Counted from the first letter of the stretch, positions 6,616 through 59,391 are shown. The stretch is DNA of 64,000 nucleotides from Cyanidioschyzon merolae (GCA_000091205.1 AP006489.2), one strand, 5' to 3'. A program made the numbers and translations. Notes: generated by a model not told the origin, from the sequence alone.

Positions 6616-9600
6616 GAGGCCTTCGCCCCCGCGGACCGCGACAGTGTTTGTGCTCCAGACCTGGTCAAGTGGTATTGATCGCCTGCGAGGTGTATTTGAC
6701 ACGAGCTGCCCCGAATAGCGGCCTGTAGGCATGGTGAAACAAGCGAACGTATTGGACCGCTACGCCGAGTCGTAACGTATAGAGGAGCTCGTTATGTGCT
6801 CGGCATCGAGAGTTCTGGAATACATGTATCATCATGATCTTTTTGACTTTGTTCGTCGTTGTCTCGCGGAGGTATTGGACAAAGGGAATGAATCCTGTCG
6901 ATAGGGGGAAACGCCGCGGAAAGAATTCATGCTGGGGCTGCTCGCTTGCGAAAAACTGGTTCACTCGCCCAAGTCAGTCATTCTGGCATTCAGCACGTAC
7001 TTGAACCGAGCTTCTCGTGGCGCTGATGCCGAACCTCTTGCACCCAAAACGGAACCTGTCGTTCTCTATTTAGACAAATGTCTGACTGGTTGTCCATACA
7101 TTCCCGTCCGTAATTTCTTTGTGAAAACCTCTCAAAGAAGCCACAGGACGCGACTTTTTCGTACTAAGGATACGAAAAGTGACGAAGAGGCACTGATGGA
7201 CATAGGGAGAAAACGTGCTTCTACGGGACTCCGTCACGCGTTGCACAGCACACGAACACTGTTGTACTGAAACGCAAACGCTTCCCACACAATGGACGAG
7301 TGTTCGTCGCCCTGGACGTTACGCGATTCGAGAAAAACGCTCGACCTGTATACGGTACTCAAAGAGGTTTAGAACGCTGTCCGTACAGAAGATGCAAGCG
7401 AGCATGACAACAATAAAAGTCCTAGCGGCTCTTCAATGGTGCAATCGCCTACATATCACCAGGCGGAGAGGATCAATCGACATCTCATTGTTCCTTGACG
7501 CGTGCTTCGTGGCTTCTCCTTCCTCGGTGCTGCTGTCCTACTCTCGGACAAGGTCGCCGTCCATCAAGTAAAAGCGGTCATGCGGCACCCGACATACGTT
7601 GGCGTTGAGCTGATCTTCGTACCAGCTTCTGCGTTCTGGTGCAATCCAGTCGAAAACAGCTTGTCTAGTGCGAAGCGCCGGTTTTCGCGCCCACGGATCA
7701 ATAGATTGGTCAGTTGCACCCACGACGCTGAAAGCTGCAGGATGCCACTGAGGATCGCGTAGCTTTCTAGTCGAGGAAGGCTCGCCTAGCACTCATCGCC
7801 TCGACGCACCTCGTCAAGCAAATGTGCGTAAGTTTCTCGGACACACGGCATCGAGCTGTCCTTTTTCCACTCGAATTTTCTGATGAAATTTCCCTGCGAC
7901 AGTACAACGGATATTCGTTAGAAAGCACGCAACTCGATCTGATGTAATGATCAGAGGTTTGGAGGCACACTTCCCAGCATACCTTCAGACGTGGACGCGT
8001 CACGTTGTCAATTGAGGTAAACGATACAGCACAGGTGTGAAAAATTATTGAACAAGACTCAAAAAGCAAATCCATTTGCAGGTCAATGTCGAGCGATTCA
8101 TGAGGTCTGTCTCGTGAGCGTTGTACGCTCAACTCGCTGGTCCAAGAAACTGAAGACTACTTCAAGCGGATTCCTTAGGTGTCTATAGAGGCGAGTGGCG
8201 AGCTGGTGATGAAGCGCTCGAAATGGCAGCGAGTTCGGAAGAAAAGTCATTCCAACAGCGACAGTCGCTTCAGACCGTCCAAGCACATCCTAGTGTGCTC
8301 GGTGCCGGGCCGACGGACGTCACCTGCAGAGCATGGTTCAGACGTCATGCCTGCCTTGCTTGCATCCTGCGCTACTGCGTTTCCCAGAGGAGAGCCATCC
8401 CGGGGGGAATCGGATTTCCTTCCAGCATCCGAGCGTCTTGGCCTGACCGAGCGTCCACTGGATATGGTCACCAGTTGTCGAGTCAAGACCCATGAGATCA
8501 CCGTTGACATTTGTTTGTAGTAGTGCATGGACTCCACAGTAGGTCATGGTAGGTCTCTGTGAGCAAGCATGAAGCATTCGAACAAGATCGTGATGAGTAT
8601 GGCCGTACATCGTTCATGGCTCCTGGGCTACCGCGAGGACCTGGAAAGAGGTTCGCATTGGCGGTCAGGATCGACGGAATATCCAACTGAATGCACTCTG
8701 TGAAGTATAGACCTGAGTTCAGCACCGACACTCATTCTCATCCGTCCTAAGTAGCTGGACGTACGTAGAGAGGTTTCGTGGCGAGCATGCGTTTCGAGTC
8801 CAAGAACATCGTTGCCGTCTTCGCAGCTCTGATTCAAGAGGATAGAGCCAACGACGTGCATAGAACGCCAATGATGCTGCTCAACTTCTCCAAGGCTCTC
8901 TCTGATCGAGATTCGAGTCTGATGGACGCAAGAAGCCACACCAGCTACTGCAGTGAATGCATTGTGACCATCTCGACGCCCTGAGTATCGTAACGGGCAG
9001 AGACGGGGGATGCGCTGTGCGCCTCGTTCAGAGCGTTCACGAGCATCCACAGAGCTCATACCGCAAAATTTTGGCGATAGTGGACGAAACCGTGTTGTCG
9101 TCGCCGACATTGTCGGTTGTGCGGAGGCAACAAGCGTGCATTCACCAATATCTTCAAAGAGCTGGAAAAACTGAAGCCCATAACTCGCGTCCTTGGGTTG
9201 CAGTCTACGGCGCCAGACATGCCGCTGTGCGCAAGGGCCGTACTCGTGCCTCTTCCGCCAGAGCGTACAACGAATTCAGGAATCGATTCTATACGATTTT
9301 CATCGATGATATCGTGATTCTATCCACGCATCACGAGCAAGCGTGCACAATGAAACAGGTGGAGAGGCAGCGCTTGCAACAGAGCCGGATGGATAACGTG
9401 GTGGTGTACCGTACGCTGACCGAATGCCAGATAGCGAGACGATCGAAAAAGAGCGGCTTGCTGGTATGTGATTCAACCAGAAAACACACGCGGACGCATT
9501 TCCTGTACCGAGACTTGACCACCACGATCAACCTTCGGAAACGTCTTGCGCTTCCACAGCATCTGGCGGCTTTTTTTCGACAAAGCTTTCAAGCGAATCG

Positions 9601-10483
9601 TTTGGTACTCTGTGTGGGCATTGGGCTAAAATGCGCAAGTCCTTCGATGAAAACATCAGTGCTCAGGAGCGAGGGCATTGAATCGTCGCTTGGACCACTG
9701 AACTGGGGTTTTACGCTTCAGCTACCCAGCAAGGCTGCTACTGGGCTCACAGACACCTGGAACACCTGTCCTTGGCCATCGATGAACGATATTGGTGTTC
9801 CATTATTCGATATTGCAGCGTGTGCACGCTTGAAACCAACGCTGCATTGTTTCGATATAGACAGGATTACCTAGGCGAACTGACCAGACTCTGTACTTAC
9901 AGCATCCACAAAGATCTGCATCGCAACGGCAGCTGCTGGTATGGACCGGACACCTGAATAGCGACGACGGCTCCCTAAACCGATGCCGTGCAGTGCTTAA
10001 CAGGGATGCTACTGGACCAGCGCTGTCACCGTCACGAACAAAGTTTGAAGACGTGAATCGTTTCGACGCTTGTCACGGAGTCGTTGCCGGTCGGTACCAT
10101 CGTTGTCGTCGTTCGCACAGACTTGGTGTTGATCAGAGTTCGCGCATGCTCCGATTGTGCCCGTGGAGGACTCGCCACATACGATGCAATTTCTGAGTGC
10201 AGATGTCATCAGTCCAGCCCATGGATATTGCAATGGTTTTTCATCGCGCACTGACCAGCCGATGAACAAGCGACACACTTCTGGACGTGAGCGCAGGGTC
10301 TCCAGCGAGCAACCGAACAGCTGACGCTCGGGCGCCGTCCAGCGCACTGCCACCAACGGTCATCTGGAGACGACGGCGTTTCCCGCAAATATTGCTGACT
10401 GTTGGAGCGGTCGTAGACCTTGCGAGCCAGTGTGTTTCATTTGCGGCTTTGCAGGGCGCTCTCTGCTTCTACACCAGCAGCAA

Positions 10484-12763
10484 TTACAATGACGTTCGCG
10501 AGTGCGGTAGAAGCAGCGCGTCCCGTAAGCACGCGGCACGCCACGCCGCCACCTGCGGAAACAGTTTGCTCACATGGGCGACAAAGTCCCGTGCCGTGCT
10601 CTCGCTCTCGAATACAAGGTCCAGCACCTGCGTAACATCCGAGCGCTGAATGAGCACACACCAGCCCTCATTGGTAGCAGACGTTGTCGGCTCGGGCTCG
10701 GTTAACTCCAGAATGTATTCGAGTGGAAGACCAAGTAGGGGCTGGAAGCCGCCACCTTCCAGCACCTCCCCTACGATGAGCATTTTGCTCTCGTTCTCGT
10801 CGGCCGCGCACAGGACACGCCTGCCCTCCAGTGAACAGTTAAAAACATCCGTCTGGGCTAGCGCCAAGGTCATCGTCTCCGCCGACTGTGTTGACCAGCG
10901 GCTCGGATCCGAACGCGCCAGATCGCACTTGTAAAGGGGCAGCAGGACGGCGTCCACGTCCGAGTAGGTATCGCTGTCGAGCGTTGCCTCGAGATACCCC
11001 AGAAAACAGGTCACCCGTTTGTATGCAGCGCTTGTCTCCGACGAATCAGCCGGTCGGGATGGGGTTCCAGTCTGTCTACGCGGCGCTTGAGCAGCTACAG
11101 CATGCGCTAGCATCCAGAGACTTGCGTCCGCGATCACATGCTCTCGACGCTGCACGCTGTCGAGCGCGTTCTCGTTCAGGGTGTTCGCTTCAGAGGGCGT
11201 CACCGACCCGAATCTCGATCGATAACGATCCCTGATGTGTTGGAGAAGATCATTGCACAGGCGCTGGCGGTCCTCCGCGTGAGCAAGCAGGCGTCCCAGA
11301 TCATTCGCGTAGGCTGGGTTCTGCTCCAGGCTGAGCTGGATATCCCCGATGCGTTCTCGGTAGAGCTGGACAATGGACGCATCGATTTGCGTGTGCTGTT
11401 CGGGGTCGTCAACTGCAAGGACAAGCCTCAATAAAACCATTTCAAGAGTGGTTGCTATACCACCCGCACCGTTGGTTTTCTCATCGAACACCGATCCCCA
11501 GAACGATCTCCCCGGGTCTAGCTGGATCCAGAGTTCGCCTTGGGGCACCGCTTCCAAGCGGTTGATGAGCGCCTCACGAGCCGCTATGCAAACGGGAACG
11601 CTCGCCGCATATGCCGTCAAGCATCGTAAACGAACGTGGTCAGCAATTCGATCAGCGTTCGAAGCACTTGCTTTGACGAAACGAGATAACAGCGCTGTAT
11701 AACGCTCGCTACGTACGAGAGTGGCGCAGCATTCAGAGCATACCAAGGCTGAGTGCCCACGTTCCAGAAAGAAAATGAAAAGTTGGACTGCGTCCGATAG
11801 CGTTAGATCCGAGCGATCACCATTCGCTGCTGCGACGAGCACCGGAGTCAGAAAATCGCTGCGCAACAGGTTCAAGAGCGTCAGCTGCACGAAAGGACCA
11901 GCCTGGTTCGCCAGTTCACCCAAGAACTCGTAGACGTCCTGGAGCTCGGCGGCTGCTCTCGCTTGATCCCCGTTGACGGAGACTGCCGCGATTGCAGCTT
12001 GTCCCAGATTGGCGATATAACGCCTAGAAAAACTATTTTTTTGCTCCATCTCTCGCGATAGAAAGCGATCGAGTGTCGGTGCATCTGCGCTTAAGCGGAC
12101 GAGTCCCAAGATCATACCATATGCTGCCGCACGCACCAGACGATCGTCGTTGTCCAGAAACTGTGTAGCAGCATTCAGGAGCGGGAAAGTGTTATCCTCT
12201 TCGCGAAAGACCAAGGGCAAAGAGGCAATGTCCAGGCGCAAGCAGACTGTGCGCAGGAGAGAGAGATAGCTCGGAAGGAGGTCCGAATCCACGTCAGCCT
12301 CTTTTCCTGTGGCAGAATGAGTAGCTTCCGTCTCTTGGAAAAGCGGTGCTGCCAGAACGACCTGACGTAGTGCGTCGTGCGCCAGCAGGTACGCCAACAG
12401 AAGCGGGTCGTGGATATTCCATAAAAGCATCGCTGCAGTCTGTAAAGCTTTGACACGGAGCGCTTGCTGCTTCGCATCGCCGGCTGGCTGAACAGCAAGC
12501 TCCAGAATGGCCGCCCAGCACTCGTTTTCCAGGAAAGCGGTGCGGCTTAGTTCTCGTTCTCGCGGCTCTGTCGACAGCACCAGTTCCACAAGCTCCCCGA
12601 GGGCGTCGAATCGAGCAACCACATCCATTTGACCCGCGTCCGAGACCAGCTGTGCGACTCGCTCTGCACGCTGAGCGACATTTTCCCGAGGTTGTAACCA
12701 GCTAGACCAGGAGCCACGCGGAGCTGCCTGCGCTCCCCTGGACTTGGTCGGTGTCATGTGCAC
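10484..12763 (-). CDS. CLEC16A: CLEC16A-like protein (FPL domain), 759 aa, single exon
   Basis: The N-terminal region aligns colinearly with human CLEC16A: ALQTAAMLLWNIHDPLLLAYLLAHDALRQVV...LLPSYLSLLRTVCLRLDIASLPLVF...FPLLNAATQFLDNDDRLVRAAAYGMILGLVRL against LQTLNILFENI...LYYLLSNNYVNSII...AYYISFLKTLSLKLNNHTVHFF...[32 protein letters not shown]. Confidence 0.8.
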   Translation of the reverse strand: MHMTPTKSRGAQAAPRGSWSSWLQPRENVAQRAERVAQLVSDAGQMDVVARFDALGELVELVLSTEPRERELSRTAFLENECWAAILELAVQPAGDAKQQALRVKALQTAAMLLWNIHDPLLLAYLLAHDALRQVVLAAPLFQETEATHSATGKEADVDSDLLPSYLSLLRTVCLRLDIASLPLVFREEDNTFPLLNAATQFLDNDDRLVRAAAYGMILGLVRLSADAPTLDRFLSREMEQKNSFSRRYIANLGQAAIAAVSVNGDQARAAAELQDVYEFLGELANQAGPFVQLTLLNLLRSDFLTPVLVAAANGDRSDLTLSDAVQLFIFFLERGHSALVCSECCATLVRSERYTALLSRFVKASASNADRIADHVRLRCLTAYAASVPVCIAAREALINRLEAVPQGELWIQLDPGRSFWGSVFDEKTNGAGGIATTLEMVLLRLVLAVDDPEQHTQIDASIVQLYRERIGDIQLSLEQNPAYANDLGRLLAHAEDRQRLCNDLLQHIRDRYRSRFGSVTPSEANTLNENALDSVQRREHVIADASLWMLAHAVAAQAPRRQTGTPSRPADSSETSAAYKRVTCFLGYLEATLDSDTYSDVDAVLLPLYKCDLARSDPSRWSTQSAETMTLALAQTDVFNCSLEGRRVLCAADENESKMLIVGEVLEGGGFQPLLGLPLEYILELTEPEPTTSATNEGWCVLIQRSDVTQVLDLVFESESTARDFVAHVSKLFPQVAAWRAACLRDALLLPHSRTSL

Positions 12764-32095: not shown

Positions 32096-33493
32096 ATGCC
32101 GAAGAATGGTCTCTCTTTAGGGAAAGTAGAAGCGGTTGCTGCTAGTCTGGACGTTCCCGAGGGCTACCACTGGCCGCACGAGGCCTTCCGTTCCCTCGAC
32201 GTTTTAACTCGGTGCCCGATCTGTGGGGAACACTTCCGCGCGCCTGTGCTGCTTGAGTGTGGCCACAGTTTCTGCAGCGAATGCATTCGTCGTGCGCTTG
32301 TTTATCGAAGCGAGTGCCCGCAGTGTCGAGCGCCCGCCAGTGCAGGGCAACTTCGTCGAAACCGTTTGGTTCAGGACGTTACAACCGCGTGGCAACAAGC
32401 ACGCGAATGCGTGCTAACCCGCTTTTCACCACAAGAGCACGCTGGGAATACGGAATGCCGGAGCTCGAAATTGGAAGCTTCGACTGAGAGCGGCCTCACG
32501 GTTCGAGAAAGAACCGAAGCAGCTTGCCCGGTGCGAGCGGCAGCGCTGACCGCACAAGTTGCGACTAGAGGTCGCGCTCGGAGCGCTCCTGTCCCGCCAG
32601 ACGAGCATACCGCAGCGGTATCAGCTGTTTGGACAGACAGACAACACCAGAATTGGGATGAAGCGGGTGTCTGTTGTGGAAATTGCGAGGAGTCGGCTTC
32701 CTCTGCAGTGTCAATGTCGAAGCGCACCGAACCCAGTCATCGATTCGAAAGAAGCGCTGAACGGGCGGGAGCCCAGCCTCCGAACGGAGGACTGAGCGGC
32801 ATTGCGGCTGTACCGCAGCCGCTTCCAGTGTTTCAGAAAACAGACGACATCTACGCGGAGGATTGGTCGGAGGCTGCTCCAACTCGGACGCCCGCCGCGT
32901 TGCCTGGTGAAGCTGCACGGGCAATGGAGCCGCGCCCACGAAACGATGCAGAGTCGACGGCGACAAGCGGTCACGCGTCGTTCACTCGACGGGCCTCGTG
33001 CGAGAGGATCCAGCAAAGAGACCATACCAAGTATGTCGAGTGCCCCATTTGCAATCGTGCATACCCGCCGGCTTTTATCCAGGTCCACGTGAATGAATGC
33101 CTGGATCAACTGGATGCCGTAGAGGCGAGCGGCTTTCCGGAAGCCGGATCTCGGGCTTTGGCCAAAGCCACCAACACGCTCGAAGACGAATATCCGATGC
33201 GGAAGATTCCCGAGGTTTGGTACGACGGCCTGACTGAACGTCGTCTCCGGGAAATGATTCGGGCGCTCGGCATGAAAGCTCCACCAGCGTGGCTCCGGAA
33301 TCGTCGTGGCCTCATTTACCTGCACCGCGAGTACGTCATTCGACATAATGCGGAGTGCGATGTGGAGCCGGTGACCGCGCGCAAACAGCGACGTAACATC
33401 TGCAGAGAGGTCGAGGAACTCGCCTGGTTCCAGATCGAGTCTGCGAGGCGACCCACACGACCAGAGGCAGCGCGTTCTTCGAATGCAACCTGA
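32096..33493 (+). CDS. RAD18: RAD18-type E3 ubiquitin ligase (RING + UBZ4 zinc finger + SAP domain)
   Basis: RING: CPICGEHFRAPVLLECGHSFCSECIRRALVYRSECPQCRAP. UBZ4: VECPICNRAYPPAFIQVHVNECLD. SAP: LTERRLREMIRALGMKAPPAWLRNRRGLIYLHREYVIRHNAECD (compare human QEFVHMYNAQCD). The domain order matches RAD18. Confidence 0.85.
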   Translation: MPKNGLSLGKVEAVAASLDVPEGYHWPHEAFRSLDVLTRCPICGEHFRAPVLLECGHSFCSECIRRALVYRSECPQCRAPASAGQLRRNRLVQDVTTAWQQARECVLTRFSPQEHAGNTECRSSKLEASTESGLTVRERTEAACPVRAAALTAQVATRGRARSAPVPPDEHTAAVSAVWTDRQHQNWDEAGVCCGNCEESASSAVSMSKRTEPSHRFERSAERAGAQPPNGGLSGIAAVPQPLPVFQKTDDIYAEDWSEAAPTRTPAALPGEAARAMEPRPRNDAESTATSGHASFTRRASCERIQQRDHTKYVECPICNRAYPPAFIQVHVNECLDQLDAVEASGFPEAGSRALAKATNTLEDEYPMRKIPEVWYDGLTERRLREMIRALGMKAPPAWLRNRRGLIYLHREYVIRHNAECDVEPVTARKQRRNICREVEELAWFQIESARRPTRPEAARSSNAT

Positions 33494-45922: not shown

Positions 45923-48718
45923 TCAGACGGACTCTCCGCGCCGATGCCGCGAAGCATTCGCCGTCGAGTCCTCGGTCAGATGTTGCGCTTGCAGTCGAGC
46001 CTCGAGCCTTGAGAGCTCGCGCTTCTCCAAGAGGTCCCTGATCACTGCAGCGAGCTCAAAATCCAACTGTGCAGCAGCTTCATGCATGTGCGTACGAAGC
46101 TGCTCATCGTCCAAGGCGCCAAGACCCGCCGGTAACCTGCCCCCGAGGCCCATTTTCGAACTGGTCTTCTCTCGTTTCAGATAGGGTTCATGCTTCGCAA
46201 GAATCGAACGCGGCTCCATTCCATATTTCGCGTTGTAGGCTGCTTGTATAGCTCGCCGTCTTTCGGTTTCTGAGATCGCTCGCTGCATCGAGTCCGTCAG
46301 CGTATCCGCGTAGAGCGTCACGGTGCCGGCTACGTGGCGCGCCGCACGCCCCATTGTCTGAATGAGTGCGGTCTCGCTTCGGAGGAATCCTTCCTTGTCC
46401 GCGTCGAGAATGGCCACCAGACTGACCTGAGGGAGGTCAAGGCCTTCCCGAAGAAGGTTCACGCCGACGATCACGTCACAGCTTTCTGTGCCAAGGGCTG
46501 AGAGCACCTCTACCCGCTCCAGAGCGTTCAGTTCGGAATGCAAGTAGCTGACCCTGAAGCGCTGTTCGCGGAGGTAACGGCAGAGTTCTTCAGCCATTCT
46601 CTTCGTTAGGGTGGTAATCAGGGCTTTCTCTCCTCGCTGTACTCTTTGGCGAAGCGAAGCGGCTAGGTGTTCGATCTGGCCCCGGGTAGGGTGCACCTGA
46701 ATCCGCGGATCAAGCACATGCGTCGGGCGAATCAACAACTCCGCCAGGGCACCGTCGGCGAGACACAGTTCGAATGGGCCCGGTGTAGCTGAAACAAACA
46801 CGCAGCGATGGACCTTGGTCCAGAACTCTGACTCACGAAGCGGTCGATTCTCCAGAGCGCTCGGTAGACGAAAACCGTAACGTACCAGGTTTTCCTTGCG
46901 TGCGCGATCTCCATGGTACATACCCCGTATCTGCGGAACCATAACATGGCTCTCATCGATGATGAGTAACCATTCGGGGGGAAAGTAGTCCAGTAGGCAC
47001 TCGGGTGGTACATCTGGTGCCCTGCCCGAGAGGTGCATGGCATAGTTCTCGATTCCCGAACAGTAGCCGTGTTCGCGCAACAGCTCAAGGTCCTGGGTCG
47101 TGCGTCGCTCCAGACGCTCGGCCGCGTGGTGCTGCCCTCGCTCGCGGAGCCGTTTGCAGCGGCTTTGTAGTTCAGCGGCGATAGCCTGGAGCGCCCGCTC
47201 GCGCTCCTCCTTGGGCGTCACGAAGTGCCGAGCGGGATACAAGGTCACATGGGAGCTGTATTCCACATCCGCTCCCGTTTCGCGATCCACATACCTGAGT
47301 TCGACAATTTGATGATCCTGTACATCGATGCGGAGTAATAGCTCCCGCTCATCCCACGACGGTAGCGAAACCTCCACCGCCGTATCCCTGATCCGAAACG
47401 TACCCGGATCGCGGGGATCGGCTCTGCGTTCGTAGAGCATGGCCTCCAGTTGTAAAACGATCTCGTCGAGACTGCAGACATCACCGAGTTTAAGGCTTGT
47501 CGCTGCTCGAAGGTACGTTGACGGCATGCCGAGGCCGTAGATGCACGATACTGACGAGACGATGATCACATCGGGGCGCTCGAACAGGGCGCGCGTGGCA
47601 GCATGGCGATAACGATCAATGTCCTTATTGATGCTTGCCGACTTTTCGATGTACGTGTCTGTGGCACTGTTGTAGGCCTCTGGCAGGTAAAAATCATAAT
47701 AGCTCACGAAAAACTCGACTGCATTCGATGGGAAGAATCCCCTCAGCTCACGATACAGTTGTGCTGCGAGCGTCTTGTTCGGTGCGAGTACCAGGGTTGG
47801 TCGTCCGTATTGCGCGATCACATTTGCGATAACGAAGGTTTTGCCAGTGCCCGTAGCGCCTTTAAGGACCTGGAATCGTTTCGAGGGCAAACGATCTACG
47901 AGGCACTGAATGGCTGCAGGTTGATCAGCGGCAGGTGTGTAGGGCGCGACCAGCTGGAAACGCTGATCAGGCAGTCGCGCAAAATGCTCTGCCAGTGTCT
48001 CCTGCTCTGCGCTTCTGCGAGGCGATATCGAAACGTCTGCGGGTATCGGTAGAATTTTGGTCAATGGAACAATTTGATCTGCGTCGTCGGAATAGCGGAA
48101 GATGTGCCAGCCGTGCTGTTCGAGGTGTTGTTGAGCGTCCGCGTCCAGTCGCCCGCGTCGAAGCAGCAGCGCCAGTTGTGTACAGAGTCGCCACATCACT
48201 GCATGCCGTGCAACAAGTCGCTCTGCGTCGGGTCTTTTCAGTGGCAGCTTGCGTTCTATGACAATGACCGCCATACTATCGTCCAAGTACAGTTTCATTG
48301 ATCGGGAGAAGCGAGCGTTTTTGGTGATCGCGTGCTCCGCACTCCCATTGCACACCTCTTGTACGAAGCGAACAAGTCGCTCAAATGGAGGCCGCTGCTC
48401 GGTCGCCACACGCGGATCCAAGGGACGCCCGTGTGCAGTTGCTGCAAGCACCGCTCGGCTCGCATCGTTCGTTGCGTTGCAGACGAGCGTCAGCGAAGGC
48501 CAGCGCCCGGCGCCGTTGGCGAGCAAGCGCATCACGACTGGGCCGTGGAACACCCCACCACCGATCCGCAAACGACACAAACATCCCGCGTTCCTCGCTA
48601 AACCTGACCTGCATAATCCTAAATTCCCTATGAGGAACATACACGCAAGCGCGTCAAAGCACAGACGAGAAGAGTTCAACACAGACACACACTCGACAGA
48701 GTTCACGCTGGTGCGCAA
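45923..48718 (-). CDS. uvrB: UvrB (bacterial-type excinuclease ABC subunit B) with 230-aa N-terminal extension
   Basis: The ORF is colinear with bacterial UvrB from about residue 230 to the end, with long identical blocks: VLKGATGTGKTFVIANVIAQYGRPTLVLAPNKTLAAQLYRELRGFFPSNAVEFFVSYYDFYLPEAY, TLTKRMAEELCRYL, LLREGLDLPQVSLVAILDADKEGFLRSETALIQTMGRAAR, and a C-terminal UVR domain (LDFELAAVIRDLLEKRE). Confidence 0.9.
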   Translation of the reverse strand: MRTSVNSVECVSVLNSSRLCFDALACMFLIGNLGLCRSGLARNAGCLCRLRIGGGVFHGPVVMRLLANGAGRWPSLTLVCNATNDASRAVLAATAHGRPLDPRVATEQRPPFERLVRFVQEVCNGSAEHAITKNARFSRSMKLYLDDSMAVIVIERKLPLKRPDAERLVARHAVMWRLCTQLALLLRRGRLDADAQQHLEQHGWHIFRYSDDADQIVPLTKILPIPADVSISPRRSAEQETLAEHFARLPDQRFQLVAPYTPAADQPAAIQCLVDRLPSKRFQVLKGATGTGKTFVIANVIAQYGRPTLVLAPNKTLAAQLYRELRGFFPSNAVEFFVSYYDFYLPEAYNSATDTYIEKSASINKDIDRYRHAATRALFERPDVIIVSSVSCIYGLGMPSTYLRAATSLKLGDVCSLDEIVLQLEAMLYERRADPRDPGTFRIRDTAVEVSLPSWDERELLLRIDVQDHQIVELRYVDRETGADVEYSSHVTLYPARHFVTPKEERERALQAIAAELQSRCKRLRERGQHHAAERLERRTTQDLELLREHGYCSGIENYAMHLSGRAPDVPPECLLDYFPPEWLLIIDESHVMVPQIRGMYHGDRARKENLVRYGFRLPSALENRPLRESEFWTKVHRCVFVSATPGPFELCLADGALAELLIRPTHVLDPRIQVHPTRGQIEHLAASLRQRVQRGEKALITTLTKRMAEELCRYLREQRFRVSYLHSELNALERVEVLSALGTESCDVIVGVNLLREGLDLPQVSLVAILDADKEGFLRSETALIQTMGRAARHVAGTVTLYADTLTDSMQRAISETERRRAIQAAYNAKYGMEPRSILAKHEPYLKREKTSSKMGLGGRLPAGLGALDDEQLRTHMHEAAAQLDFELAAVIRDLLEKRELSRLEARLQAQHLTEDSTANASRHRRGESV

Positions 48719-49704
48719 CTGTCATGTCCGCCTGCCAACGGATTACAGGAGCGCGCTCCTTTGACGGGCGATTTGCTTTGCGTTTTCTCTCGGCGATCAA
48801 AAGTTTACTTTGACCATGCATCCCAGATTGCGGGATGCGTATTGGCTTTCGGAAAAGCGTCCTTAGGGCTGCGCAACACTACCAAGTTCCATGACGTAGA
48901 CTTGCATTCGGATGTACTGGACGTTTAGTACGTTCTATCGTGTGCCGAGTGCCTGCATTACTGCACCAGCCGTATCGCATATGCCTCTGTTACGGATCCA
49001 GCACGGAGACGGAACGGCTTTGCCATAGAACAGAGGGCGTCGGCTCGAGGTATGATTCATTCAACATGGAATCGGGATTCATTAGCCTGCTGGGAGCGTG
49101 CAAGCTGCGCAGACACACATGCTGCCTGCGACAGCGCGAAGCGACATACGAGGCGGATACCACGCCGACCAGGGCGATGCCCAGACGCAGCCTGTCCGCT
49201 GGCAGTCCCAGATTACACTGCGTTCCGGATGAGCTGCTGACATTTCCCTACAGGACTCGCCACTCGCGAGGGCATCGTGCACTAGCCCGATAGACTCGTC
49301 CGGCTCGCGGAACTTTCTGCCTAGAAAGAAGAGTTTCGAGGATACGGAAAGCGTTTCCCCCTCCTAGCGTTCTTCGTAGTGGGGGCGGGAAATCTTTATC
49401 TCGTTGCTGGTGAATCTTGAGTCTCTGTTCTTTGCCCTGAATAGCGCGCTCGATACGTGCGCCTTTATATTTGGCAGGAATTGAACATGTCCTGCTTCTC
49501 ATCGTTGAAGAGAAGCGCAATCCTGATCATTATCGTGTTGCAGCAAGGTGCAATGTGGATTTGCATGAAAGTCGTCGCAAAGTATAGTTGTGTATCTCAA
49601 TTGGGTTTCAATCTTTACATTTGTGGATTCAAGTGCTTTTTCGCTGTGTATAACAAAAACGTTCAAAGTGCGTTCTCTTTTGCAAAAGGAAAGAAAGGAA
49701 AGTT

Positions 49705-51887
49705 ATGGAAGTAGAAGTGGAGGATCCTGCAGGCCTGGTGTCGGCGGCTGCCGCAGAGAACAAAAAACATTTCCGGCACCATAGGAACGGGAAAAGACGA
49801 AGAATCAACGGGAACGAGGGAGGGCGGACGTCAGACGCCGCACGAAAAACGACACTACGACGAGATGTTCGTGAAAGCTTTTCTTTCAAGCCGTATCGAG
49901 GATCCCTACAAGCAACCGTTGCAAGAGGTCATCAGAAACCCTGTCGAATCATATTCCAGGAGTGCTCAAATCTCCTGTTTAGGACTGATGCATATGACGA
50001 GGGAGATGTATCGCGGCGTGACGCGCATAGAAAGAGTCGAGGTTCCGGAGGAATTTTCTAACGAGACCTTCATCCGCCACTTGATGCTTGGCACGGGGGA
50101 AACCTCGAAGAGAAATGAGCGAGCGCATGACGTACAGGAAAATGACACCGAATTCCGCTTCAACGGTACTCGATACAAGTATGACGGGGACATTCACACC
50201 TACGGGGCGATCTAGTACCCCAGGATCCTGAGGAACCCCATGATCGTAAACTTCGACCGCATCATGATACGCTCCGTCTTTGCACTGTAACCGGGCCTCT
50301 CTCGCAAAGGGATATGGGCTATCGTCGATGGCATCACGAACGATAGTGACAATGAAGAGGAGACCGAATTCGCCGAAAAGAAGGCATCACCCGGGAGCAT
50401 GAATGAAGCTTCTGTGCTCCGTGCGGCTCTTCGAGAGCACCGTACGGGTTGGCGTTAGCCAATCCTGCAGCAAAGGTATCAGAGATGAAAAGAGATGCTA
50501 TCCCCTCATCCTGCGCTATTTCGTGTTCCTGAACCGAGAGCTCGAACGCAAGGCGGAGATGGAGCTGGATGTGGAAGCAAGTGAAAAGTCGGTGAAACGG
50601 AAGGCTGCGCTTCTGAAGAGGCGCTTCAACCTCGTTCTGGAATGCAAAAGCAAGTCGCGCTTTGTGGCTAGCGATTCCAGATTCCTTCGCTGCTCCAAGG
50701 AGATCTGTCCGAAATTCGATGTTCATAACAAGGAATTCACGGGAGAAAAACGGTGAGACTCATCGGAAGAATATCTTCGATTTCAAACGTCTCAAAACGA
50801 GCAAGAAAAAGGTATTCACGGTGACGATCGACAGCGATGGGGTATCCATATGTGTACATTATCGGCGGTTGAAGGCGGATCGTCCAATTGTGCCTTCGGC
50901 TTCGCCCGCGGCGAGGCACGAAGAAAACACGGAGGCGGGCCCTGGATCGTATAACCCCCAGAAGAACGACATCGTGGCAGGCGCAGACCCCGGGAACACG
51001 TATATCATAACCATCGCAGTGCCCAGGGGTGCGAAAGATGGTATTGCTGGCGGCTTGCGTCAGAAAGCCATGAGTCTTTTAAAGCACTCAAAAGCGAGAT
51101 ATTACCGAGAGTCTAGGATAATTCATGCGAGGAAAAAAGTGTGACGTAGAATGCAGCCGGGAAGGCGCACCTGGAGGCGATCAGCCAGGTGACGGGCCGC
51201 CGAGCGGACTCTGAAGCTTTTCAGGAATTCATGAAAACTCATGCTGCTCACTAGGAGGAGCTGTGGAGAGATTACGCAAAGCTCCGGTTGGCTCGTCAGC
51301 GTATGAATCTCTACTGTGGGAAGCAACATGCGTTCGCCAACTTTTTCAATGAGTTGAGCGCCCTGGAGGAGGACGAGAGTCAAACGCTCGTAGTAGCATA
51401 CGAAGCAGGGCGCTCGATGAATCAAAAACGGAGCATACCCGCTCCGTAAACCACAGCGTACAAGGAGTGTGCACAGTGTTTTGTCATAATACCGATAGAT
51501 GAGTTCCGAACGTCATATACGGACCATGAACGGGGGTATACACTTCACCGGGTCGAGATGGAAAAGTGCCAGAGGAGCCCTGTGAAGATATAGAAAAGTA
51601 AGGAGAGCTGACAGAAGAGCAAAATGGAATGGAGGGCGAAAGTTCCAGGGCTACTTGCACTGGTGAGTACAAGCGGTGGCAAGAAACGTATGGAGTTTAT
51701 GAATCTTGACTTTAACGCCGCTATCAATATCAGACGAAGTGCGATTCTGAAGACGGGACCTGCAGAGCTGACGAGAGCCAACTTTGTGGGGCAGCCAGTC
51801 AAAGTCGAGTTTTACAAGGAACAGCCGAAGCCGATATCACTCGAGCAGTCGAAAAAGGCTCGGAGGCGTCTACGCGTCGGTGTATAG
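49705..51887 (+). pseudogene. Fuller-length TnpB/Fanzor-like RuvC nuclease gene, frameshifted (at least 4 frame changes)
   Basis: On one strand, in canonical order: a basic NLS-like N-terminus (KKHFRHHRNGKRRRINGNEGGR, ORF 49705..); Ruv[21 protein letters not shown] (Asp codon at 50986; compare Cas12/TnpB GIDRGERNLIYITVI); a RuvC-II-like block ...EEDESQTLVVAYEAGRS (about 51370); a zinc-ribbon remnant KECAQCFVIIPIDEFRTSYT (about 51480..51516); and RuvC-III MEFMNLDFNAAINIRRS (Asp codon at 51708). The GC content is visibly lower than in flanking host genes. Confidence 0.55.
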
Positions 51888-53024
51888 ACATATACGCTCT
51901 GGGTCTCACGGAAGCAAATGCAACGATGCGCTGTCCATTGGCGATACGCTGCACGCGTTTCAGGCAACGAAGGTCGCTGCTGTGAGTCACGGCAGCATCG
52001 ATGCCCACGAGAAAGGCAGTTCGATGCAACAACCTCACACCACACAGGATCGTTCTCTGCGGACAAGGCGAATCGTTCACACTGCTGCTCGGTGCCGGAT
52101 TGGCTTCAGATGCCGGCGATGATCTCTCCTCGTTCATCAGCGTCGACAGCAATCCGAGTCGCCCCGAGTCCGGGCACTGAATCGATGCAACTGTGGCGCA
52201 ACCATGTCAGATACTGTGTCGCGTTAGCCGTGAAGCCCGAACATGCAGTCATGTATGTGATGGTCTGCATCCAGTGACTGCAGCACTGCATCGGGGCGCT
52301 TTCGGGGCGTGCACAGGTGCCTCTGGGTCGATGATCCTGGCGAGCGGCGAGACGTCCGCGAGCATCCTCGCAGCGAAACAATGGTGATAGATGCGTCATC
52401 CTCGCATGGCTGCGTCCTCGCGAATAGCGTCGAGCGCGCTTGCCATGAGGCTTACCAGCATCGACCGAACAGACCAAAATCCCCAGAGGAAGGTACGGTC
52501 AAGGGCCCACGGGAAGCATTGGTGGTAGAATGCGGGCTGATGATTGATTCCCTCGATGCCGATACGCATCGCACGCGGAGGAACTCCATATCAAATGAAA
52601 CGATCCAAGTTTTCGTCACGTGAGCGAAAAGTGCAACAGGCTCGCATCGTCGGGCATACACGCTCAAGTTTGCGTCGCTTCCTGGTGTCATGAACAACAG
52701 CGTTCGTATGCGTTTTCTGAGATTGCTTCTTTTTCCTCTCTCATATTTCCGGCTTCAAACTACGTCGGTCTCTATTGTCCATCCAGGCTCTGTTGCCAGC
52801 AGTCGAATGACGTTCTTAGCCGCGGAAACGTTCCGATTTCGCTGCTTGCCGCTGTTGTCGACGCATTTCAAGTAACGGCGGTCGTTGCGATCCATGGTTC
52901 GATGGCCAGTTTCATCTTCTCTCTACACAGCCTCGGAGCGCCTTTTGTGGCGGCCAAACTTGGCAGTGATCAGGCGTTCTCGAATGTCCGCTAAACCTCC
53001 TGCTCCTCGTACGGGCGCCGCTCT

Positions 53025-53700
53025 GTGGCACGAGAATGCATGCTTCGCCTCTCAGCACATGCACTTGACGAACGCAGGAGGCTACCCTCGATGTCTGTCT
53101 CCGGTTTCCGCGCCCGACGGTATACACCGGGATCACAGGCTTCCTGTTGGCGAACTCCGCAAAGCGCTCTCTGTCCGTTGAACGCGCCTGCGAACACTGT
53201 TCCAATCGATGAAGGATGTGTGGAATGCGAAATTCTCCTAGATGAAACAACTACAGGAAAGAAAATCTTGGCTGTAGAACAAGTCGATAGATTTCGATCC
53301 GCTGACGTTTTTTAGGTAAAAAACGGTAACGCATGCTCCACTGGAAAGCATCGCTGCGGTGGTTCAAGTTCGAGTCCAGGACATTTTTCCGTGCAAACAC
53401 GAGAAACGGGAGCCTCCTTGAGCACACCCTTTGACAAGTACCATGATGCTGTCGATCGCCGCGTTCTCGATGGCTACTAAGAACCGAGGATTTGTGTTTC
53501 AAACGGAATCGCTTGTTTCAGGTGAGAATCTCAGTGAATTTTCGGTACGAGGGTACGACCTAGCCGTCAATGGATAACGTGGCGCTTTTTTCATCGTCAA
53601 TCTAGAGGCACAGAGCGCTGCGCCCTCGAGTTGCCTTTGTACAGAAAGTTCGAGAACTTGAAGCATGTGTGATTTGAGCATGCTACTCGAAATGACCGAA
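53025..53700 (+). mobile_element. TnpB/Fanzor-like relic copy C (RuvC-II-like core plus conserved tail and hairpin box)
   Basis: ORF 53025..53315 reads ...LCPLNAPANTVPIDEGCVECEILLDETTTGKKILAVEQVDRFRSADVF. The tail gtgtttcaaacggaatcgcttgtttcaggtgagaatctcagtga (53497..53540) and the box gaagcatgtgtgatttgagcatgctactcg (53660..53692) are shared with copies A, B, D and 1. Confidence 0.5.
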
Positions 53701-54845
53701 AAAAATCGAGGCTTGACAGTTTAAACTGGATCGTAATACTGGTCAATTTACGAACCTGTGTGCGACAGCGCCGCGAATCCTATTCATGCTGATGTCATAA
53801 CGAATTCCAGCAGAAGAAGCGTTGAACGGGTCACGCAGAGAACAAGATCATAAATCCTAAAACAACATATGGATCTGCACGCCCCTATTGCTGCACCACG
53901 AACATGGAGGCTGTCTATGTAAAAAATTTGGAAGAAAATCAAACAGCAGGAGCAGAGCGAACACTTCCGAGTTCCCTTTTCATCTGACAAATGGGTAAAC
54001 GAGGAAACAAATGCGGTTCCGCGACGGGCGCACCAATCGATCCTGACCCTGCGACGTACACCGCCGCGAGATACGTTTTGTTTTCCGGTGCACGATCGAT
54101 GATCCTGACTCTAAGAATCCCTCTGAAACCGCAGTTGCTGTCGGCAGTTCGGGAAACGACCGCTGTATCCCTCCAGGCCCTTGTCCATTTCACTGACGCT
54201 GGGACGGTCTATCCGTCAGAGATACGCTCTAGAGGGATCGAGTGAGCCGCCAGATGCCGAGCTTGCATAGGCGCTCGCAACAACGCAGCATTCGCCAACT
54301 CTCTGCATGCTCATCTGGGGATAGGATCGCTCTGCGGTGCCTGCATACCGGCATCGGGTCAAGCAGCATAATACGGTGCTTGCACTTGTCCATGACAATC
54401 ATTCAGCGTGCTCATCGATTCTACGCGATCGATGTTTTGGAAAGAGCGCTCGTTTTCATTCTGGTTTCTGATGCGCACAACCGGAGCCTTTGATCGACCT
54501 GGAAACAGTAGATCCTCGACAGCGTGGATCTGCGACAAAACGTCTCCTGGGCAATACTCGCGTTTTACCGTTGCTTGTGTCGCGTTATACCTGAATGCTG
54601 CCGTGCGCCAGCGTTCATGCGTCGGGACATTGCGGCGCTGGAGACCGCATTCTGTACAGCATCAGTTCGATGAATCGAACGACATGTTCCCAGATGCACG
54701 AGTGCTGGCGCGTACCCGGCACCAGGGCGCCATCTCAACGCAGGCGAATGCTCCGGATCCCGAACGAGAGCGAAGACATATCAGAGTCCGTCCAGTTTTG
54801 CGTTGCATCACGCAGCACGTCGGCAGCATATCCTCGAGTACATCC

Positions 54846-55541
54846 AAGTCGGCGTTATTCTGGCATGTCTTATTCAGACGAACCCGGATGCACCTCTCGC
54901 CTGGTGACTTTGCTTACGATACTAGCGGATACAAGTCGGCGTTATTCTGGTATGTCTTATTCAGACGAACCCGGATGCACCTCTCGCCTGGTGTCTTTGC
55001 TCACGATACTAGCGGATACAAGTCGGCGTTATTCTGGTATGTCTTATTCAGACGAACCCGGATGCACCTCTCGCCTGGTGACTTTGCTTACGATACTAGC
55101 GGATACAAGTCGGCGTTATTCTGGCATGTCTTATTCAGACGAACCCGGATGCACCTCTCGCCTGGTGACTTTGCTCACGATACTAGCGGATACAAGTCGG
55201 CGTTATTCTGGTATGTCTTATTCAGACGAACCCGGATGCACCTCTCGCCTGGTGACTTTGCTCACGATACTAGCGGATACAAGTCGGCGTTATTCTGGTA
55301 TGTCTTATTCAGACGAACCCGGATGCACCTCTCGCCTGGTGACTTTGCTCACGATACTAGCGGATACAAGTCGGCGTTATTCTGGTATGTCTTATTCAGA
55401 CGAACCCGGATGCACCTCTCGCCTGGTGACTTTGCTCACGATACTAGCGGATACAAGTCGGCGTTATTCTGGTATGTCTTATTCAGACGAACCCGGATGC
55501 ACCTCTCGCCTGGTGACTTTGCTCACGAGACTAGCGGATAC
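54846..55541. repeat. 87-bp (29-codon) minisatellite, 8 near-identical units
   Basis: Units start at 54846, 54933 and so on up to 55455 (period exactly 87), with only 3 variable sites (ggcatg/ggtatg, tgactt/tgtctt, gcttac/gctcac). Two plus-strand frames stay open through the array, giving ORFs of 412 and 428 aa. Confidence 0.9.
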
Positions 55542-56248
55542 CGCCGTGCAGCACGCCTCCGGGTCGCCACACATGATATGCCCGTTAGAACAGGGCTCTC
55601 TGGCCGGGAAACACAGACTTGTTTCGGCGCTGCGACTGCTGCTTGAAGGTGCTCCCCCGTGGCCCAAACGAACTTCCTGTGGCAGTCCCATACCACGCAT
55701 CGCGCCTTGCTACCGGGTGTCAGGTCCAGCACCGCTCTCAGGGCCTCCGCTTACCTCACGACGCTCTTCTCGAACTGGTTTCGAGCTGCATGCACGCTGT
55801 TTTCCGAAACGCTTTTCTAACGAGTTCCGCAGGCGCCGTGTGTCCCGCTGCGTGTTCGCATGCGACTGTCACCAGAAGTAGCGCCCGCGTTCGAAAAAGG
55901 ACAAAAGACTTTCGTTCGCCTGGTTGCCTATCGCCGCAAAAGCGATATCACACATATCCGTCTACACCATGCGCTGTATATACTTGTTCGTCGCGTTCAT
56001 CTCCGGTTTCAGTGCTACGAACACTGGTTGAAAAGGCGGTAAGCGCTAGCCGCAGCTGGCGTCAAGCGCGTGGGTTGGGGTCGGCGCGCCTTCGCCCCAG
56101 GCTCCATCGACACCGTTTGCGGAGGCGACGACGCTTTGGAGCGCTGGACGTGACGGGTATCGTTTCTGTTATCTTTCGTAACGCCACGCTGGAAGCGAGT
56201 AAATAGTGTTGTTCTGGGGGAGTGCTGTGGAACTTGCCGGTGGTTCAC

Positions 56249-56853
56249 ATGTCTGCACCTAGTGCGGGCCCAAGTGAACGCGCGAACCATGTGGCGACAA
56301 CTTCTCGAGCGTCGCGACTCCGACTGCTAGCTGACCTGCGCGACATGCAGCAAGACCCGCCGGAGGGCTGCTCCGCGTCTCCGTACTGCGAAGATAGTAA
56401 GTTTTGGATAGAATGAGTGCGTCGAGCGTCTTGGCTCACGAAGATGCGCGACTCGGTTTTGAACACGAGACTAACCACTTGGTTGAACGCTCAGACTTGT
56501 ATACCTGGGGTGCAACTATCATCGGTCCCGAGGACAGTGAATGGGAAAATGCGGTGCTTACGCTGAAGCTGACGTTCCCAGAGCAGTATCCTGAGAAACC
56601 ACCACGAGTTCGCTTTACATGTGAGATGTTCCATCCGAACGTGTACCACGATGGCAACGTATGCTTGTCTCTTCTCAGCGAGAACTGGTCGGCTGCATAT
56701 AGTGTATCCAGTATCCTGATCGCAATCCGGAGCTTGCTAACGGATCCGAACCCAAACTCGCCCGCGAATCCCGAAGCTGCACATCTATTCTCAATGGACT
56801 ACAATGATTACAAGCGGCGGGTGCGGCGAATTGCCCAAAAATCTCTAGAATGA
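56249..56853 (+). CDS. RAD6: RAD6/UBC2-type ubiquitin-conjugating enzyme E2, two exons: 56249..56396 and 56495..56853
   Basis: Exon 1: MSAPSAGPSERANHVATTSRASRLRLLADLRDMQQDPPEGCSASPYCED. Exon 2: NLYTWGATIIGPEDSEWENAVLTLKLTFPEQYPEKPPRVRFTCEMFHPNVYHDGNVCLSLLSENWSAAYSVSSILIAIRSLLTDPNPNSPANPEAA... The spliced product (168 aa) is colinear with yeast/human RAD6/UBE2A, and the junction reconstitutes the EDN(I)LTW motif. Confidence 0.85.
56397..56494 (+). other. Spliceosomal intron (98 nt, phase 1) of the RAD6/UBC2 gene
   Basis: The 5' splice site is GAT A|GTAAGT at 56397 and the 3' splice site is gctcag|AC ending at 56494. Joining the exons restores the frame and the conserved E2 sequence. Confidence 0.8.
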
Positions 56854-58350: not shown

Positions 58351-59391
58351 TTATGCAAAGACTCGCAGGCGGCTCGTGTCTATCCAAGGATTGATACCGC
58401 TCCGACGTGCTTCATCGGCCAGCTCGAGCTCGTCCTGATCCATACGCAAGACGTAGAGCAACGGCTCAGCGGGAAGCAGGGAAACTACAACGTCAACAAC
58501 GCAACCGTGCATCACGGGTGCCTGCTGCAGCACAACACCCAGACGTTCGTGGAGCGCGCCCTGCGCCAGCGCTTTGTTCCGGATGACGACAAGGTCACCG
58601 GCCTGATACCGCGGTATCCACGATTTGTCCATGGAGTGCAGCACTTGTGCAGGCATGTGCTGGGCTGCAAGCCTCGTCGCTCTGGTAGGAGGCGGGTTCC
58701 ATGAATCGAATTCCATTACAAGACGCTGGACGTCGACAATGTCTCGTTCCGACTCGCAGACTGCCGACTGGGCGACGTGCGCTTCCGCAGCTGTGACGCT
58801 ACTCCTCGCGACCTGAGGGAGGTTGGTACCCAAACGGCGCTCATGGAGCTCCAGGATGCTCTTATTCGAAAGCGGAATTCCGGGGGCCTTTGATACGTTG
58901 CCATGAACGGTGTCTTGGATGGAGACGAGCCAAACACGCTCCGGCTGCAGACGAACGACTGCGCTGGTATGCGGCGACGTTTCTCCTTCTGATACGAAAA
59001 CTACTCGGTCTGGACAATGGGCCAAGAGCCACTGCAAGAAGCGTCGGAGACTTTGCCAGCGCGTAGCGTGAAGCCGCACGTGTCTAGGGTCCTGAGTGAC
59101 GTAGTCATACACTTTCGTTGCCTGCACGCGTCGGTCTGGAAACTGAGACGTCCGACTGAGCTGAGCGAGTGCCAGCAAGAACTGGGAAAAAAAGCGTTCC
59201 GAGAAAAGCGCACGACAGGCACTTTCATTGCCAGCTAGAGCAATGACGCGCTCCTGGTGTGCTCGACCCGCCTGGTGGGTGTCCAGCGCTCGTTGGTCGC
59301 GGAACTGTCGTTCACACACCTGGCAGTAGAGTCGCAGTGCGGGCTTTGCCTGGCTCCGCAAACGCCGTGCGATCGCTCTAGGTGTCGACAT
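58351..59391 (-). CDS. KIN17: KIN17-like DNA/RNA-binding protein (C2H2 zinc finger + winged-helix + C-terminal SH3/KOW-like region)
   Basis: MSTPRAIARRLRSQAKPALRLYCQVCERQFRDQRALDTHQAGRAHQER aligns with human KIN17 TPKAIANRIKSKGLQKLRWYCQMCQKQCRDENGFKCH...SESHQRQ. ...KVYDYVTQDPRHVRLHATRWQSLRRFLQWL aligns with VYNEYISHREHIHMNATQWETLTDFTKWL. Confidence 0.75.
   Translation of the reverse strand: MSTPRAIARRLRSQAKPALRLYCQVCERQFRDQRALDTHQAGRAHQERVIALAGNESACRALFSERFFSQFLLALAQLSRTSQFPDRRVQATKVYDYVTQDPRHVRLHATRWQSLRRFLQWLLAHCPDRVVFVSEGETSPHTSAVVRLQPERVWLVSIQDTVHGNVSKAPGIPLSNKSILELHERRLGTNLPQVARSSVTAAEAHVAQSAVCESERDIVDVQRLVMEFDSWNPPPTRATRLAAQHMPAQVLHSMDKSWIPRYQAGDLVVIRNKALAQGALHERLGVVLQQAPVMHGCVVDVVVSLLPAEPLLYVLRMDQDELELADEARRSGINPWIDTSRLRVFA

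Follow-up and report, generated by a model that had tools for sequence, protein, structure and literature searches.

How a gene for UvrB, part of the bacterial excision-repair system UvrABC, came to lie among the genes of a eukaryotic nucleus, and what its product may do there, are the questions raised by a locus of the red alga Cyanidioschyzon merolae. The gene, CMG133C, is found at positions 45,923 to 48,718 of a 64,000-nucleotide stretch of C. merolae DNA (GCA_000091205.1 AP006489.2), referred to here as the window and numbered from its first letter. An earlier note, made from the sequence of the window alone, had taken it for a probable horizontal acquisition with an added N-terminal region, perhaps domesticated for organellar repair. 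The analysis described here leads us, with considerable confidence, to another view of its history: CMG133C is likely to be a cyanobacterial-type UvrB that reached the nucleus by endosymbiotic transfer, has been inherited vertically since then and would serve as an organelle-imported excision-repair helicase.

The nuclear uvrB gene and its relatives

A single uninterrupted open reading frame (ORF) on the minus strand, as are all features of the gene given below, fills 45923..48718; with a TTG accepted as start, as the bacterial code allows, it would have 931 codons. Read as a eukaryotic gene, it starts with the ATG at 48640. The complete, intronless, nuclear-encoded coding sequence (45923..48640), established by an ORF scan and exact identity to the GenBank product, then consists of 905 codons at 45926..48640 and a stop codon at 45923..45925. 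The 905-residue product is letter for letter the protein BAM79644.1 / XP_005535930.1 / UniProt M1V7B4 of C. merolae 10D, "excinuclease ABC subunit B"; this identifies the window as nuclear DNA of C. merolae and shows that the gene had been annotated already. Neither the gene nor its name is new, both having been in GenBank for years. The locus tag CMG133C comes from a supplementary table of PMC13353863, in which RNA-seq values of ~14-33 per sample (units as in that table) document that the gene is transcribed. The 26 in-frame codons from the TTG up to the ATG (48641..48718) are most likely 5' untranslated region, judging from orthologues that begin at the aligned methionine, and their inclusion in the ORF is an artefact of the bacterial start-codon rule. 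An unannotated upstream exon, which the earlier note had considered, finds no support: the start MF[LIV][IL]G is kept at the annotated ATG in three species, which speaks against a lost exon. In front of the UvrB core lie 226 residues if one counts from the ATG and 252 if one counts from the TTG, so that the added region of about 230 residues is indeed there.

The core (domains 1a, 2, 1b and 3; residues 227-815; 46196..47962) was delimited by Pfam, equivalog models, motifs and an alignment to 2fdc, the crystal sequence of UvrB from Bacillus caldotenax. Both NCBIfam equivalog models, NF003673 (858.1 bits against a cut-off of 743) and TIGR00631 (846.8 against 750.1), match from profile position 1 to ~650, corresponding to residues 253-899 of the ORF counted from the TTG; in the same numbering, the 2fdc sequence aligns with 646 residues, 252-897, at an E value of 3.5e-211. 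Pfam domains found are ResIII/DEAD, UvrB_inter, Helicase_C, UvrB and UVR. The motifs of a superfamily 2 (SF2) helicase/ATPase are intact, with Walker A (GATGTGKT) from residue 261, Walker B (DESH) at 562 and motif VI (GRAAR) at 764, and all of them fall in alignment columns that are invariant and common with cyanobacteria. The aromatic beta-hairpin that verifies damage is present as well: it reads FVSYYDFYLPEAY at residue 311 and YFVSYYDYYQPEAY in B. caldotenax, with one exchange of Tyr for Phe. Towards the C terminus follow the UVR domain (residues 846-873; 46022..46105; PF02151, 27.4 bits against a cut-off of 21.5), predicted as the UvrC-binding helical hairpin and carrying the motif FELAAVIRD at residue 861, and a tail (residues 874-905; 45926..46021) that the alignment shows in the Cyanidioschyzon/Cyanidiococcus clade and that is absent from Cyanidium and from cyanobacteria. 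Judged from its sequence, CMG133C is a complete bacterial-type UvrB, and the equivalog, structure-sequence and Pfam matches bear out the claim that it aligns with bacterial UvrB end to end, UVR domain included.

Relatives were sought among 5.8 billion proteins, with the 120 top matches evaluated, and again with a hidden Markov model (HMM) built from 19 algal homologues. The best four matches were proteins of Cyanidiophyceae, with identities of 99, 66, 71 and 58%. Among the remaining 116 of the 120, the named bacterial matches were all cyanobacterial (53-56%) bar one labelled Gracilibacteria. The search with the algal HMM agreed, with algal proteins first, a few of them interleaved, and cyanobacterial names thereafter. 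A HMMER scan of 1.84 billion cluster representatives returned many UvrB proteins with long N-terminal offsets, and all that could be named were algal. Homologues are thus at hand from the red algae Porphyridium purpureum (KAA8495736.1), Agarophyton chilense and Pyropia vietnamensis, the brown alga Cladosiphon okamuranus, the pelagophyte Aureoumbra lagunensis, the haptophyte Prymnesium parvum (KAL1510864.1), the green prasinophyte Pycnococcus provasolii (XRB01906.1) and an MMETSP transcript. As a side observation, the Gracilibacteria-labelled entry ('Candidatus Gracilibacteria bacterium', 670 residues, 53% identity) is probably a mis-binned cyanobacterial contig.

For the phylogeny, 80 prokaryotic UvrB loci were fetched across many phyla, 48 of which entered a neighbour-joining tree of 100 sequences (589 trimmed core columns, 200 bootstraps, two distance corrections). 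The 19 algal sequences, from red, green and brown algae, a pelagophyte and a haptophyte, formed one clade with bootstrap values of 100 and 97.5 under the two corrections. Algae and 19 cyanobacteria together formed a clade that left the other phyla outside (78.5 and 86.5). A vertical algal clade beside the cyanobacteria argues against a lineage-specific horizontal gene transfer (HGT), and since CMG133C sits within a broad algal UvrB clade, a finding that the earlier note itself had named as refuting its reading, the reading as a horizontal acquisition loses its ground. What stands of it is a bacterial-type gene in a true nuclear locus; that the gene is isolated or recent does not. Because the clade contains red and green algae, the acquisition would predate the red/green split and fall about the time of plastid origin. 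In addition, uvrABCD belong to the core gene set of every one of 76 cyanobacterial genomes in a survey (PMC5101192), so that the endosymbiont very probably carried uvrB. According to this model, the nucleus would have received uvrB from the ancestor of the primary plastid, vertical descent would have followed, and secondary endosymbioses would have passed UvrB on to the lineages with red-derived plastids.

The N-terminal extension

The extension has two parts, a presequence and a compact domain, the latter joined to the core by a linker. The presequence (residues 1 to ~80; 48401..48640) was recognized by its composition, basic and poor in acidic residues, and by its low conservation. Its first acidic residue is D59, and the first 60 residues hold six arginines and lysines against one aspartate or glutamate. 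It is poorly conserved in the alignment, and AlphaFold2 gives a predicted local distance difference test (pLDDT) value below 50 at the visible end of the region. It starts with MFLIG, MFILG or MFVIG in three species of the Cyanidioschyzon clade. An N-terminal phenylalanine is reportedly characteristic of the transit peptides of red algae and glaucophytes. From these features the presequence is probably an organelle transit peptide, directed to the plastid, and the organelle-targeting signal that had been suspected in the N-terminal region is plausible. Its destination could also be the mitochondrion, or both organelles and not the plastid alone. A basic, acid-poor presequence suits both kinds of signal, and a second in-frame methionine at residue 37 ('MRLLANGAGRW') could provide an alternative N terminus. 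Many plant organellar DNA-maintenance proteins are dual-targeted, and the same might apply here. The cyanobacterial ancestry of CMG133C, the conserved MF start with its reported link to red-algal plastid transit peptides and the restriction of the named homologues to plastid-bearing lineages all speak for the plastid, and we regard a mitochondrial or dual destination as rather doubtful.

Residues ~85-195 (48056..48388) form an alpha/beta domain, specific to algal UvrB and termed N-domain here, that is conserved in all four sequences from Cyanidiophyceae. AlphaFold2, run on a shallow alignment, predicts a compact domain (pLDDT ~88) with the order alpha-beta-beta-beta-alpha-alpha-beta-alpha-beta-beta. 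Residues 196-226 (47963..48055) link it to the core; alignment and AlphaFold2 indicate low predicted order there and a short conserved helix, 'LaeHFaqlP'. An HMM of the N-domain matched the regions in front of the core in the Pyropia-type, Porphyridium, Cladosiphon and MMETSP proteins weakly, with 9-15 bits over a background of at most 5 bits for unrelated sequences, and always in collinear fashion. Profile-profile comparison of the N-domains with hhalign gave a probability of 85.7% (E 5.5e-6, 71 columns), and a separate AlphaFold2 model from Bangiales-type and Cladosiphon sequences only had essentially the same order of elements (pLDDT ~80), with the first strand reduced to a single bridge residue. 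The N-domain is absent from bacterial UvrB and from Pycnococcus, the sole green homologue. Sequence comparison thus points to a lineage-specific module gained early in the red lineage.

No credible match to the N-domain turned up in sequence and profile searches of Pfam, NCBIfam, PHROGs or the PDB; a match to CagY was dismissed because it contained no significant matched stretch. A search of the protein index with the N-terminal 151 residues returned no match, but it missed even the 99%-identical representative and is uninformative as to absence. In fold, the predicted domain is nearest to restriction endonucleases of the PD-(D/E)xK type, with modest scores and STAS domains almost equal, and a restriction-endonuclease-like fold can tentatively be assigned to the model. 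Conserved in the N-domain is the pattern 'RS[MW]x[LV]Y ... [RK]K ... DAER' (in short, 'RSMxlY ... RK ... DAER'). Compared with the nuclease domain of NucS/EndoMS, with AF1548 and with type II restriction endonucleases, identity is 6-15%, that is, without sequence similarity, and the D...(D/E)xK signature of these enzymes is not conserved: IERK of C. merolae is ARR, VRK, NRK, NKK or DRK elsewhere. The Glu and Asp positions vary, and what is kept is the basic residue and the DAER-like motif. An active PD-(D/E)xK nuclease, as the 'DD...ERK' of C. merolae might suggest, was therefore rejected, for the acidic residues vary in Cyanidium and in other algae. With would-be catalytic residues so variable, the N-domain cannot be filed in the PD-(D/E)xK superfamily and has a similar fold at most. 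Most probably, as far as the models go, it is a non-catalytic DNA- or protein-binding module on a nuclease-like scaffold.

Domain 2, repair partners and the route into the nucleus

In the model that we favour, the basic, acid-poor presequence with the MF start would direct the 905-residue precursor into an organelle, most probably the plastid. The mature protein would then act as the ATP-dependent, damage-verifying helicase of a UvrABC-type excision repair of organelle DNA: its beta-hairpin would be inserted at the lesion, its C-terminal UVR domain would recruit UvrC for dual incision and the N-domain would add a further contact to DNA or protein. UvrC is annotated in C. merolae, as CML058C ("excinuclease ABC subunit C"), and orthologues are listed for Cyanidiococcus and Cyanidium (PMC13353863 supplementary tables).

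Several observations weigh against this reading. The tree is distance-based with simple corrections and was calculated without Gloeobacter and Gloeomargarita, and the link to cyanobacteria is moderately supported. The identity of CMG133C to cyanobacteria (55-59%) exceeds that to other phyla (50-55%) by just a few points. The annotated N terminus of the Cyanidium protein does not have the MF start. Domain 2 of the Cyanidioschyzon clade has an identity of just 26-27% with the cyanobacterial consensus, and this drift would fit a partnership with UvrA that has been altered or lost. Finally, no uvrA entry was present in the rows searched of three gene tables of Cyanidiophyceae (1,998 of 5,022 rows for C. 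merolae). The table of C. merolae was covered up to CML009C (~40%) and the two related tables to roughly similar, estimated shares, so that this negative is weak; a UvrA that is present would by chance have escaped the search in all three tables in about 1 of 5 cases.

Domain 2 (UvrB_inter, the UvrA-binding domain) comprises residues 378-470 (47231..47509) and is matched by PF17757 with 51.2 bits against a cut-off of 22.9. Identity to the cyanobacterial consensus is 44% for Cyanidium and 46-53% for Firmicutes, Proteobacteria, Chloroflexi, Actinobacteria and Bacteroidota, so that domain 2 of CMG133C has diverged far more than in any bacterial phylum sampled, and its divergence is unusually large in the algal clade, whereas domains 1a, 1b and 3 of CMG133C are conserved to the same degree as in those phyla. 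Despite this divergence, R405, R416 and R437 are retained; in the alignment they correspond to R183, R194 and R213 of B. caldotenax, which we take to be part of the surface in contact with UvrA. These three arginines are invariant in 19 of 19 cyanobacteria and present in 42-43 of 43 other prokaryotes; all four proteins of Cyanidiophyceae keep them, and other algae have replaced them variously. The Pyropia-type and Cladosiphon homologues gave no Pfam match to UvrB_inter or UVR. As judged from these comparisons, the UvrA interface in algae is under altered constraint, which may reflect either a UvrA that has diverged along with it or the loss of UvrA.

As to the partners, CMG133C (UvrB) and CML058C (UvrC) were the only ones that turned up in the full text of the literature and in the searched rows of supplementary gene tables; UvrA did not. 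Within the window, neither UvrA nor UvrC is encoded by any of the 21 ORFs of at least 200 residues that were scanned with Pfam (three further overlapping ORFs lay outside the scan), and the absence of uvrA and uvrC from the window, noted before, holds among these 21. Of the two partners to be looked for in the assembly, UvrC has thus been located by annotation and UvrA was not found in the searched rows of the gene tables.

It is tempting to speculate that the algal protein has become independent of UvrA and works with UvrC alone, or in some other DNA transaction, with the nuclease-fold domain at its N terminus providing for loading onto DNA, recognition of DNA or the binding of a partner. A divergence that is confined to domain 2 throughout the algal clade, the loss of otherwise invariant arginines, presumed to contact UvrA, outside the Cyanidiophyceae, the Pyropia-type and Cladosiphon homologues without UvrB_inter or UVR matches, the conserved N-domain common to the UvrBs of the red lineage and the failure to find UvrA in the searched rows all point in this direction. 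Taken as a whole, with both of its parts, such a repurposing, although the main alternative to the model above, seems unlikely to us. The same must be said of the wider idea that algal organelles run a remodelled excision repair from UvrB, UvrC and the N-domain, in which lesions are searched for and UvrB is loaded without a canonical UvrA: it is possible, with the odds clearly against it. If true, it would contradict the statement that 'all eukaryotes lack UvrABC genes' in a paper of 2024 (PMC11228841).

The endosymbiotic route that we prefer has to be set against an ancient transfer outside endosymbiosis, in which a free-living cyanobacterium would have donated uvrB to an early alga and secondary endosymbioses would have spread it. 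What speaks for it is that the algae stand beside the sampled cyanobacteria as a sister group and are not nested within them, that bootstrap support is moderate and that the green lineage has a single named representative. It is, however, less parsimonious, and with uvrABCD in the core of the 76 cyanobacterial genomes (PMC5101192) the endosymbiont very probably had uvrB itself; we consider this route very unlikely.

The neighbourhood of the gene bears on a more recent transfer. Eukaryotic neighbours had been named in the earlier note, and Pfam bears them out with an HDAC-type deacetylase (PF00850; 43677..45065), a RING/RAD18-like protein (32096..33493) and KIN17 (58351..59391); the scan also placed a Myb protein, an FMO, a kinase-PP2C fusion, a DRG GTPase and Mpv17 in the window. 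The gene of a RAD6-like E2/UBC protein is split at 56222..56853 (plus strand). Its coding sequence begins in the ORF 56222..56416 ('...LLADLRDMQQDPPEGCSASP') and continues, with the HPN motif, in an overlapping ORF in a different frame, 56404..56853. Coding parts in different frames imply a short intron around 56.4 kb, which confirms the remark in the earlier note that this gene has an intron. Composition and codon style of CMG133C had been described as host-like, and agree with the neighbours: GC content is 0.575, GC content at third codon positions (GC3) is 0.62, and relative synonymous codon usage (RSCU) correlates with that of the other genes at r = 0.82, the top value of 13 genes tested. 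The order KIN17 - E2 - UvrB - HDAC is also found in the genome of Cyanidium caldarium, with ~40 kb collinear between Cyanidioschyzon and Cyanidium including flanking genes. One additional JGI contig has E2 - UvrB - HDAC; a 99%-identical JGI contig and a Cyanidiococcus-type contig, both shorter, have the HDAC-UvrB adjacency alone.

A recent or lineage-specific HGT from a bacterium into Cyanidioschyzon or the Cyanidiophyceae, followed by domestication, is hardly compatible with these data. In its favour are the bacterial type of the protein, the absence of UvrA, UvrB and UvrC from flowering plants (PMC6981420) and the fact that the Cyanidiophyceae are known for HGT, with ~1% of genes so derived (PMC6629376). 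Moreover, UvrB of the Cyanidiophyceae is nearer to cyanobacteria (55-59%) than to that of other red algae (48-50%) over the 589 columns. The Cyanidiophyceae, however, have the shortest branches of the algal clade, which explains their higher identity to cyanobacteria. The clade to which they belong also takes in other red algae, a green alga and lineages with red-derived plastids, the algal N-domain is absent from bacteria, synteny is kept across genera and composition is fully host-like; CMG133C does not appear in the HGT supplement text of Cho et al. 2023 that was searched. Patchy occurrence in a single lineage, atypical composition and nesting in a donor group, the hallmarks of recent transfer, were not found, and we regard such an event as highly improbable. 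A bacterial contaminant contig joined to a eukaryotic scaffold, the chimeric assembly that the earlier note had named as fatal to its reading, has nothing but the bacterial-type sequence to recommend it and can be dismissed, since the same gene lies beside the same neighbours in four other, independent assemblies (two from JGI, Cyanidiococcus and Cyanidium caldarium), is transcribed, has host-like codon usage and carries an N-terminal extension specific to eukaryotes.

Some features of the locus deserve mention in their own right. Genes of the DNA-damage type are clustered here, with the RING and zinc-finger (RAD18-like) protein at 32096..33493, UvrB at 45926..48640, E2 at 56222..56853 and KIN17 at 58351..59391, and the adjacency KIN17 - E2 - UvrB is common to Cyanidioschyzon and Cyanidium (7759..12496 of its locus). 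This may be coincidence in compact collinear genomes or may reflect shared regulation. The ~7.5 kb between UvrB and E2 (48719..56221) are without a convincing gene; in Cyanidium caldarium, the spacing is only ~0.5 kb (9479..10001 of its locus). A near-perfect tandem repeat of 87 bp x 8 (98% matches) at 54845..55541 gives rise to long artefactual ORFs in two frames, 54408..55646 and 54595..55881. Three broken ORFs at 50662..51887 (plus strand) bear short motifs reminiscent of the RuvC motifs of TnpB/Fanzor (e.g. 'NLDFNAAINIRRSAI'). A decayed TnpB/Fanzor-like transposon gene at 50.6-51.9 kb was rejected, because it amounts to two short motifs without support from Pfam or PDB searches.

Comparison with related repair systems

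With bacterial and cyanobacterial UvrB (B. caldotenax 2fdc/1d9z), CMG133C has in common a collinear core of ~650 residues with all helicase motifs, the beta-hairpin, domain 2 and UVR; identity to cyanobacterial UvrB is 53-56% in local BLASTP alignments and 55-59% over the 589 trimmed core columns. In contrast to its bacterial counterparts, it is nucleus-encoded and has a presequence of ~80, an N-domain of ~110 and a C-terminal tail of ~30 residues.

Other algal UvrBs belong to the same clade, and those of the red lineage share the N-domain (hhalign 86%, same predicted fold). The proteins of the Cyanidiophyceae are the slowest-evolving and most bacterial-like among them; they keep the arginines, UvrB_inter and UVR that most other algae have lost or blurred, whereas other algal UvrBs have longer, unrelated insertions and extensions. 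Some of these homologues reach twice the bacterial length (1333 residues in Pycnococcus, 1194 in Prymnesium, 1335 and 1401 in others), and some of the long ones are enlarged at the C terminus rather than at the N terminus. A second DEAH-like motif is seen in some; examples are DEAHASALL (Prymnesium, Aureoumbra) and DEAHGYANS (Pycnococcus). The sequences suggest that the long algal UvrBs may be fusions with another helicase-like or an unknown module.

Full-text searches of the literature yielded no treatment of algal UvrB or UvrC or of these locus tags, and the algal UvrB clade, its conserved N-domain and the divergence of domain 2 appear to be undescribed so far in the literature searched. With a UvrB clade that extends from red algae to at least one green alga and to several lineages with red-derived plastids, and with an annotated uvrC, excision repair in plastids becomes testable in C. 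merolae, which is described in the literature as genetically tractable. Both the N-domain and the divergent domain 2 may hint at the way in which a bacterial machine of three components was trimmed after its move into a eukaryote.

Bacterial excision repair outside the Bacteria is not without precedent. Mesophilic archaea (Halobacteriales, Methanosarcinales) likewise have UvrABC from bacteria (PMC1564403). There, however, ordinary HGT brought in a complete set of uvrA, uvrB and uvrC that has neither a targeting sequence nor an added domain, whereas in C. merolae the route would be endosymbiotic and the set may be incomplete. Closer at hand is TRCF/Mfd of plant organelles, which is also of the endosymbiotic type, nucleus-encoded, organelle-targeted and associated with bacterial excision repair (PMC6981420, PMC11228841). 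Flowering plants are without UvrA, UvrB and UvrC, and according to a review nucleotide excision repair seems to be absent from organelles (PMC6981420). They keep TRCF without these three proteins, whereas C. merolae keeps UvrB and, by annotation, UvrC.

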